Assembly: GCF_011045215.1 (NCBI RefSeq)
Contig: NZ_CP049201.1
Reading direction: 5' to 3' (one strand)
Source of the DNA: Escherichia coli
GTDB lineage: Bacteria > Pseudomonadota > Gammaproteobacteria > Enterobacterales > Enterobacteriaceae
Length of the DNA stretch: 64,000 nt
Shown here: positions 32,925-33,112 of the stretch, one piece after another
Layout: each line of letters starts with the position of its first letter
Position numbering within the stretch: position 1 is the stretch's first letter
The notes under the pieces: model-generated
Seen by the model: the letters and a program-made list of their open reading frames with translations, nothing else
Told to the model about the DNA's origin: nothing
The model's database searches: none
Program-made: the position numbers and the translations under genes

Positions 32925-33112
32925 GTCGCATCAGGAGCTGTTTGTCGGATGCGGCGTGAACGCCTTATCCGACCTACGGTTCGGATTTGTAGGCCTGATA
33001 AGACGCGGCAGCGTCGCATCAGGCGCTGGCTGTCGGATGCGGCGTGAACGCCTTATCCGACCTACGGTTCGGGTTTGTAGGCCTGATAAGACGCGGCAGC
33101 GTCGCATCAGGC
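32925..33112. repeat. BIME cluster (multiple REP palindromes) between cpsB and cpsG
   Basis: Repeated gtaggcctgataagacgcggcagcgtcgcatcaggc and gtcggatgcggcgtgaacgccttatccgacctacggttcgg units. Confidence 0.85.

Follow-up and report, generated by a model that had tools for sequence, protein, structure and literature searches.

The spacer between cpsB and cpsG in the colanic acid operon of the Escherichia coli strain analysed here carries a BIME-2 array, whose units would be gained and lost by slippage and which would shift expression towards the upstream genes by means of RNA hairpins. We give this reading as a whole a probability of about 0.55, a figure that mainly reflects uncertainty about the regulatory effect; the identification of the palindromes as BIME-2, the dispersed REP family of E. 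coli, is close to certain. It is plausible that cpsB is favoured over cpsG and the later genes, as had been proposed in a previous sequence-only reading of this DNA. That reading overlooked an element in the same spacer, an algC RNA motif located beside the cpsG start. The window, i.e. the whole stretch of DNA analysed, comprises 64,000 nt of contig NZ_CP049201.1.

A BIME-2 array in the cpsB-cpsG spacer

According to the list of open reading frames, the cpsB gene for mannose-1-phosphate guanylyltransferase (31486-32922, + strand) ends with the stop codon TAA at 32920-32922, and the cpsG gene for phosphomannomutase (33203-34573, + strand) begins with an ATG at 33203. The spacer between them (32923-33202) is thus 280 nt long, the length previously given for it. 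Gene names follow a RefSeq record whose sequence has 100% identity to the window over 32700-33400 (701 nt), and for both genes its annotation and the list of open reading frames were used. Tandem Repeats Finder returned a single array at 32924-33112, with a period of 88, 2.1 copies and 96% matches, so the BIME placed by the sequence-only reading at 32925-33112 was located to within 1 nt. The palindromes had also been said to fill the spacer, which is too much: the array takes 189 of the 280 nt, and the 90 nt at the 3' end are unique sequence that includes the algC motif.

The array is made of two tandem 88-nt units, each with a Y-type REP on the + strand and an inverted Z2-type REP, preceded by a 12-nt head fragment of a Z2 REP (CGTCGCATCAGG, 32924-32935). 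This 12-mer begins 1 nt past the cpsB stop, opens every 88-nt unit and closes the array, forming a direct-repeat family of three copies spaced 88 nt apart. Next comes the first Y REP (GTCGGATGCGGCGTGAACGCCTTATCCGACCTAC, 32944-32977, + strand), without mismatches to the Y pattern, followed by an 11-nt tail-to-tail linker (GGTTCGGATTT, 32978-32988) where BIME-2 have their S linker, and by the first Z2 REP (32989-33024, - strand), inverted relative to the operon and with one mismatch to the Z2 consensus. The second Y REP (33032-33065, + strand) and the second Z2 REP (33077-33112, - strand), with which the array ends, are identical to the first ones, again with zero and one mismatch, respectively. 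The order is therefore Y(+), Z2(-), Y(+), Z2(-), with linkers of 11 nt tail-to-tail and 7 nt head-to-head, and the four differences between the two units all lie in the linkers. When the same consensus searches were run on 100 shuffles of the window, 0.00 matches were expected by chance, so the claim of several REP palindromes forming a BIME between the two genes holds. The Y and Z2 consensus strings used are corroborated by the Rfam naRNA4 model, whose consensus can be aligned with the Y and Z2 REPs of the array in inverted orientation.

These features correspond to BIME-2 in the Gilson/Bachellier classification, of which Ton-Hoang et al. 2012 (PMC3333891) give a summary. The locus has the Y and Z2 composition (two Y REPs with 0 mismatches, two Z2 REPs with 1 mismatch each), REPs alternating with inverted REPs across a short linker rather than the long, IHF-binding L linker of BIME-1, well conserved tandem copies within the locus (2.1 x 88 nt, 96%), a unit number that differs between strains (spacers of 104, 192, 280 and 368 nt), and membership of a dispersed extragenic family with further copies in the window at 9371, 22541 and 37532-37716. 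Nothing essential sets it apart from the family: like other BIME-2, it has Y and Z2 REPs in alternation, a short linker, conserved tandem units and a strain-variable number of them, and its Y copies merely have the paired variant GTCGGA...TCCGAC in place of GCCGGA...TCCGGC. A BIME-1 or an IHF site was also considered and rejected, since the linker is short and the IHF consensus WATCAANNNNTTR has no match on either strand in the array linker.

Both genes are on the + strand, and a scan of 32500-33600 on both strands for sigma-70-like promoters or intrinsic terminators found none, in agreement with the earlier view that the BIME lies within an operon of co-directional genes. On these grounds a separate promoter for cpsG was rejected, as was an intrinsic terminator, and since the gap has neither, the array should be cotranscribed with the flanking genes. 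Two minus-strand open reading frames, 32759-33019 (86 aa) and 32931-33146 (71 aa), which run antisense to cpsB through the REP palindromes, were judged to be by-products of the repeats.

REPs at this locus have been reported before. Iguchi et al. 2011 (PMC3158064) described REPs and REP-containing indels in the cpsG-cpsB, wcaK-wzxC and wcaA-wzc spacers, and found two REPs in cpsG-cpsB of strain PV276; locus and elements are the same as those described here. That work compared six O157 strains and discussed recombination, without the BIME-2 class, population frequencies or the algC motif. As REPs had been published in this gap and variation of BIME-2 copy number from strain to strain is a general property of the family (PMC3333891), the cpsB-cpsG cluster is real, ordinary and already known. 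In practice it is of use for annotation and as a length marker for a region prone to recombination.

Variation among E. coli strains and other elements of the window

Of the 5,426 complete E. coli genomes, 5,425 had matches to a 701-nt query (32700-33400), mostly because its repeat part is dispersed; the median number of matching places in a genome was about 11. We describe the alleles from a sample of 60 records taken at even rank steps from the 5,426 genomes. One unit (spacer of 192 nt) was the state of 28 of the 60 records, while two units (280 nt), as in the window, were present in 6 and three units (368 nt) in 2. Nine records had no unit but retained the 12-mer (104 nt), five had a divergent spacer of 101 nt with no unit and no trace of a REP, one had only a Y REP (128 nt), and the remaining nine gave no match at the cps locus. 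A unit is thus missing from 14 of the 60 records, about 28% of the sampled genomes with a recognisable locus, and the operon is still intact in them. The K-12 strain MG1655 has the 104-nt allele with 0 units, in which the 12-mer CGTCGCATCAGG is the sole BIME remnant according to the allele alignment, so that the array is missing from the reference strain of most REP work. The BL21 and O157 records in the sample have 1 unit.

In the allele alignment, whole units flanked by the 12-mer account for the differences between the spacers of 104, 128, 192, 280 and 368 nt. Since this sequence stands at every unit start and at the array end, it offers a direct repeat for the gain or loss of units, and slippage or unequal recombination across it would produce the range from 0 to 3 units. 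Linker variants are not the same in two 3-unit alleles, a sign that these expanded independently. Among the sampled E. coli the array behaves like a VNTR with 0 to 3 units and is dispensable. Two unusual ones among these alleles could be either ancestral or products of deletion: that of E. coli ETEC4079 (128-nt spacer, locus L088, 524-651), with the 12-mer and a Y REP truncated before CCTAC but no Z2 REP, and that of E. coli E300010 (101-nt spacer, locus L004, 724-824), which has no trace of a REP and contains a small CCGGA/TCCGG hairpin.

The colanic acid operon of the window has two other REP-containing spacers. A single inverted Y REP, found by consensus search and reported as conserved (PMC3158064), lies between wzc and wcaA (22541-22574, - strand); this 92-nt spacer is identical in MG1655. 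The wzxC-wcaK spacer (37503-37778) holds a second BIME-2 at 37532-37716, which consists of a degenerate Y REP, an inverted Z2, a Y and an inverted Z2 with a 96-nt period. MG1655 shares the 2 units of the window, and strain OkiPb01676 has 5, the additional 288 nt corresponding to exactly 3 x 96 nt. OkiPb01676 (O109) is the closest colanic-acid relative; it is 100% identical to the window over 701 nt and 99.1% identical and colinear over 2341-37717, and from the wzxC-wcaK BIME onwards identity falls from 99.1% to 96.5%. Its O-antigen cluster differs from that of the window. The region at about 44263-54070, presumably the O-antigen cluster, has no match longer than the 300-nt cutoff in OkiPb01676, which indicates that the window comes from a strain of another serogroup.

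Some other elements of the window may be recorded here. Three tandem matches to SIB RNAs, the antitoxin RNAs of Ibs-type type I toxin-antitoxin pairs, lie at 1928-2732 on the - strand (137.7-142 bits), and the matching region of OkiPb01676 carries ibs toxin genes and an insertion of the IS421 family. At 9371-9406 (- strand) there is an isolated Z2-like REP with 3 mismatches, placed by colinearity with OkiPb01676 between the convergent genes dgcE and alkA.

The algC motif and the junction in other genera

The 3' part of the spacer holds a full-length, high-scoring member of the algC RNA motif (Rfam RF02929), a cis-regulatory candidate that abuts the ribosome-binding site of cpsG and is an element separate from the BIME. 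The match at 33149-33198 (+ strand) covers model positions 1-52 of 52 with 76.6 bits against a gathering threshold of 33.8 (E = 3e-15), ends 4 nt before the cpsG ATG and precedes a phosphomannomutase gene. The motif is at the same position in the E. coli alleles with 0, 1 and 3 units, being kept in every allele examined; it is conserved in 14 further loci in all, with 10 other Enterobacteriaceae loci where it lies upstream of cpsG. Pairing as in the Rfam model (GGCCG/CGGUC) precludes the hairpin of minimum energy (UUGGCC/GGCCAA), and vice versa. No description of this motif is given in the main text of Weinberg 2017. Between the BIME and the motif there is a unique A-rich linker of 36 nt (33113-33148, + strand; 47% A), which is unpaired in both the global and the span-limited predicted folds. 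The corresponding position is A/U-rich in other genera too, and the linker may be regarded as a candidate entry site for an endonuclease.

Species-representative genomes were scanned for CpsG, giving at least 15 loci of the Enterobacteriaceae type with a cpsB-like gene directly upstream; the matches listed included none from Escherichia coli, Salmonella or Klebsiella. Among these listed matches the gap between the two genes is 53-135 nt, save for 212 nt in Superficieibacter, and for the more distant manC-manB pairs listed the distance is mostly 0-38 nt. A GC-rich hairpin (-9 to -23 kcal/mol) starts no more than 14 nt past the cpsB stop in 12 of the 15 listed loci, most of the hairpins of these other genera beginning 6-14 nt after it. 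The hairpin is usually followed by an A/U-rich stretch and then, in 10 of the 15 listed loci, by the algC motif. Like REPs, four of these hairpins have CTAC or something close to it (CCTAC, TCTAC, CCCAC) at their end; that of Citrobacter sp. FP75 is a recognisable Y-type REP, and that of Superficieibacter is an Enterobacter-type palindrome in the opposite orientation. No second copy of the hairpins of other genera was found within their 7-kb loci.

The 212-nt spacer of Superficieibacter electus (locus L017, 2789-3000) has a predicted fold of -107.9 kcal/mol and no algC motif. It contains a long palindromic repeat, CCCTCTCCC...GGGAGAGGG / GGGTGAGGG, together with the inverted Enterobacter-type REP, and the long repeat presumably resembles elements of the boxC type.

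The recurrence of a hairpin at the same position across genera suggests either selection for a hairpin there or a persistent hot spot of insertion, and it is the one mildly new result of the analysis. One could go further and suppose a conserved three-part processing module, composed of a GC-rich hairpin after the stop, an A/U-rich single-stranded linker and the algC motif, in which the number of BIME-2 copies in E. coli would be a heritable dial between early and late genes. Different genera would then have filled the hairpin position with different palindromes, REP-like in several cases, and E. coli with an expandable BIME-2. The early products would be those for export, the glycosyltransferases, GDP-fucose synthesis and CpsB, and the late ones CpsG, WcaJ, WzxC and beyond. 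We consider such a module rather unlikely.

Proposed effect on colanic acid expression

The principle behind the proposed effect, namely that REPs inside an operon can stabilise the upstream mRNA and attenuate downstream expression, was called established in the sequence-only reading, and the literature bears this out. Intra-operon REP effects are attributed to Newbury 1987, Stern 1988 and Espeli 2001 in papers that cite them (e.g. PMC3158064). Stem-loops, REPs included, protect 3' ends, many transcripts terminated by Rho have their steady-state 3' ends at them, and REP hairpins shield upstream mRNA from 3' exonucleases (PMC6061677). Deletion of REP325, an array of the BIME-2 type in yjdMN, where it is both a stabiliser and a partial terminator, lowered the ratio of upstream to downstream mRNA from about 35 to about 1, and genome-wide the median log upstream/downstream ratio of tandem gene pairs separated by REPs was 0.96, against -0.09 for controls (bioRxiv 10.64898/2026.03.23.713779). 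The same preprint reports that REP effects vary widely and depend on context, and that there is no general link of terminal REPs to longer half-lives.

The cps array has what such an effect would require, an untranslated gap between co-directional genes and hairpins predicted to be stable in the sense transcript. Each REP is predicted to form an RNA hairpin, of -19.2 kcal/mol for the Y and -20.5 kcal/mol for the Z2 type, so that there are four on the sense strand, and these are retained in the prediction when the pairing span is limited to 50 nt. The predicted fold of the whole junction has -142.4 kcal/mol (z = -7.0 relative to shuffles). The stem of the Y REP in unit 1 could moreover be extended by 7 predicted pairs from 32935, 12 nt after the cpsB stop.

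With these elements, the following course of events may be proposed. The array would be transcribed within the polycistronic cps mRNA and would form four stable hairpins; after endonuclease cleavage in the A-rich linker, or occasional termination downstream, they would block 3'-to-5' exonucleases and so prolong the life of the segment from wza to cpsB relative to cpsG-wcaJ-wzxC. Attenuation of transcription by the array would be weak at most. The whole effect would be local and quantitative and not needed for colanic acid synthesis, since alleles with zero units exist, that of K-12 MG1655 among them.

Of the two halves of the earlier proposal, stabilisation is the more credible, and attenuation is probably overstated. 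The operon leader upstream of wza contains a JUMPstart sequence (18546-18584, + strand) with an exact ops site (GGCGGTAGCGTG, 18573-18584), and the colanic acid operon has been described as using JUMPstart-RfaH antitermination (PMC9976346). This leader matters because polymerase modified by RfaH resists Rho, and antitermination of this kind should oppose any Rho-dependent attenuation. G exceeds C in every 78-nt window of 32850-33240, which means that there is no C-rich, G-poor stretch resembling a rut site, although composition alone cannot rule out an action of Rho. The leader, the excess of G over C in the gap and the presence of only four hairpins all weaken the case for attenuation; REP325 fragments containing 2 to 4 hairpins showed no response to bicyclomycin (bioRxiv 10.64898/2026.03.23.713779). 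A second JUMPstart with a one-mismatch ops site lies at 44228-44266 (+ strand) and presumably heads the O-antigen cluster.

Among experimentally studied cases, REP325 in yjdMN serves best as a model of an element that both stabilises and attenuates; like the cps array, it has Y-Z2-type hairpins within an operon, between two genes of the same direction. It differs from the cps array in having 12 hairpins instead of 4 and in its orientation relative to transcription, which is opposite because the naRNA4 model matches the antisense strand at cps; the RfaH/ops leader of the cps operon is a further difference. The REPs of malE-malF and hisJ-hisQ, as the work of Newbury 1987 and Stern 1988 is reported by others, similarly form hairpins in an untranslated gap within an operon, with protection from 3' exonucleases as the proposed role. 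Those cases were tested by deletion, whereas the cps array is known from sequence and is absent from the K-12 reference strain. We found no literature on expression across the cpsB-cpsG junction.

Other explanations of the array have to be considered, and two of them, a neutral repeat and a gyrase site, are compatible with a weak RNA effect. The array could be an effectively neutral or selfish repeat lodged in a gap that pre-existed for the algC motif, its copy number drifting by slippage or recombination. Many of the observations agree with this: copy number ranges from 0 to 3 and the flanking genes are never lost, independent expansions exist, the units within the locus are near-identical and so must be recent, the wzxC-wcaK BIME behaves likewise, and such variation is general in BIME-2, as noted above (PMC3333891). 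We nevertheless lean against neutrality, while granting it real weight, because four mRNA hairpins, each of about -20 kcal/mol, would hardly go unnoticed by exonucleases, tandem pairs separated by REPs are biased towards the upstream gene genome-wide (bioRxiv 10.64898/2026.03.23.713779), and a hairpin occupies the same position in most of the other genera examined. The role could also be exerted on the DNA, by a strong site of gyrase binding and cleavage that would relieve the positive supercoils of this operon, about 22 kb long, when it is strongly induced. BIME-2 are enriched in sites of gyrase cleavage, chiefly within their Y REPs, and these sites behave as strong ones irrespective of transcription (PMC6379681); moreover, two BIME-2 arrays and one single REP are spaced along this operon. 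As cleavage sites are found in only a subset of BIME-2 (PMC6379681) and K-12 does without the cpsB-cpsG array, a gyrase role seems improbable to us.

The array might instead lower CpsB, if a REP close to the stop codon stalled terminating ribosomes and led to tmRNA tagging. The rule of Liang, Rudd and Deutscher (2015), as quoted in PMC12306157, applies to REPs whose distance to the stop is under 16 nt. The predicted extended Y hairpin of unit 1, with its 7 additional pairs, could start 12 nt after the stop, and hairpins begin 6-14 nt after it in other genera; but the canonical Y stem begins only at 32944, 21 nt after the stop and thus beyond the rule, and the extension needs G-U pairs and linker bases that vary between units and between alleles, which makes stalling distinctly improbable. 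Hardly more than a slim chance can be given to the array being mainly a recombination junction for exchange of the O-antigen and colanic acid region. Some REP indels do coincide with shifts in similarity around the O157 cluster, a point which its authors themselves call speculation from few cases (PMC3158064), and the window and its closest cps relative do diverge from a BIME onwards; the break point observed, however, is at the wzxC-wcaK BIME and not at cpsB-cpsG. Finally, the array could be thought of as the source of an naRNA4-like, HU-binding RNA with a role in the nucleoid, which we find hardly credible. The Rfam model (RF02564) scores 75.1 bits at 32992-33062, above its gathering threshold of 59.5, but this match runs antisense to the operon, on the minus strand, and the transcribed + strand reaches only 50.9, below the threshold. 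A Y-Z2 pair underlies the model, so that matches to such pairs are to be expected in general, and the wzxC-wcaK array was matched as well; the nucleoid role itself is contested in the REP325 preprint (bioRxiv 10.64898/2026.03.23.713779). Membership in naRNA4 was therefore rejected, as the threshold was passed on the antisense strand only and the match restates the presence of a BIME-2 rather than giving evidence of an sRNA gene.

Returning to the BIME-2 as a source of hairpins that would favour the upstream genes, the variation among strains gives the proposal its interest. If the array tunes the early against the late genes of colanic acid synthesis, strains with 0, 1, 2 and 3 units would constitute a natural allelic series. 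The idea that REPs act as noncoding dials on gene expression was put forward in the 2026 preprint on REP325 (bioRxiv 10.64898/2026.03.23.713779), and such a series could be used to test it. An effect of this kind would also be relevant to the engineering of colanic acid and GDP-fucose production, where hosts of the BL21 type, with one unit in the BL21 record sampled, would differ at this junction from K-12, which has none.
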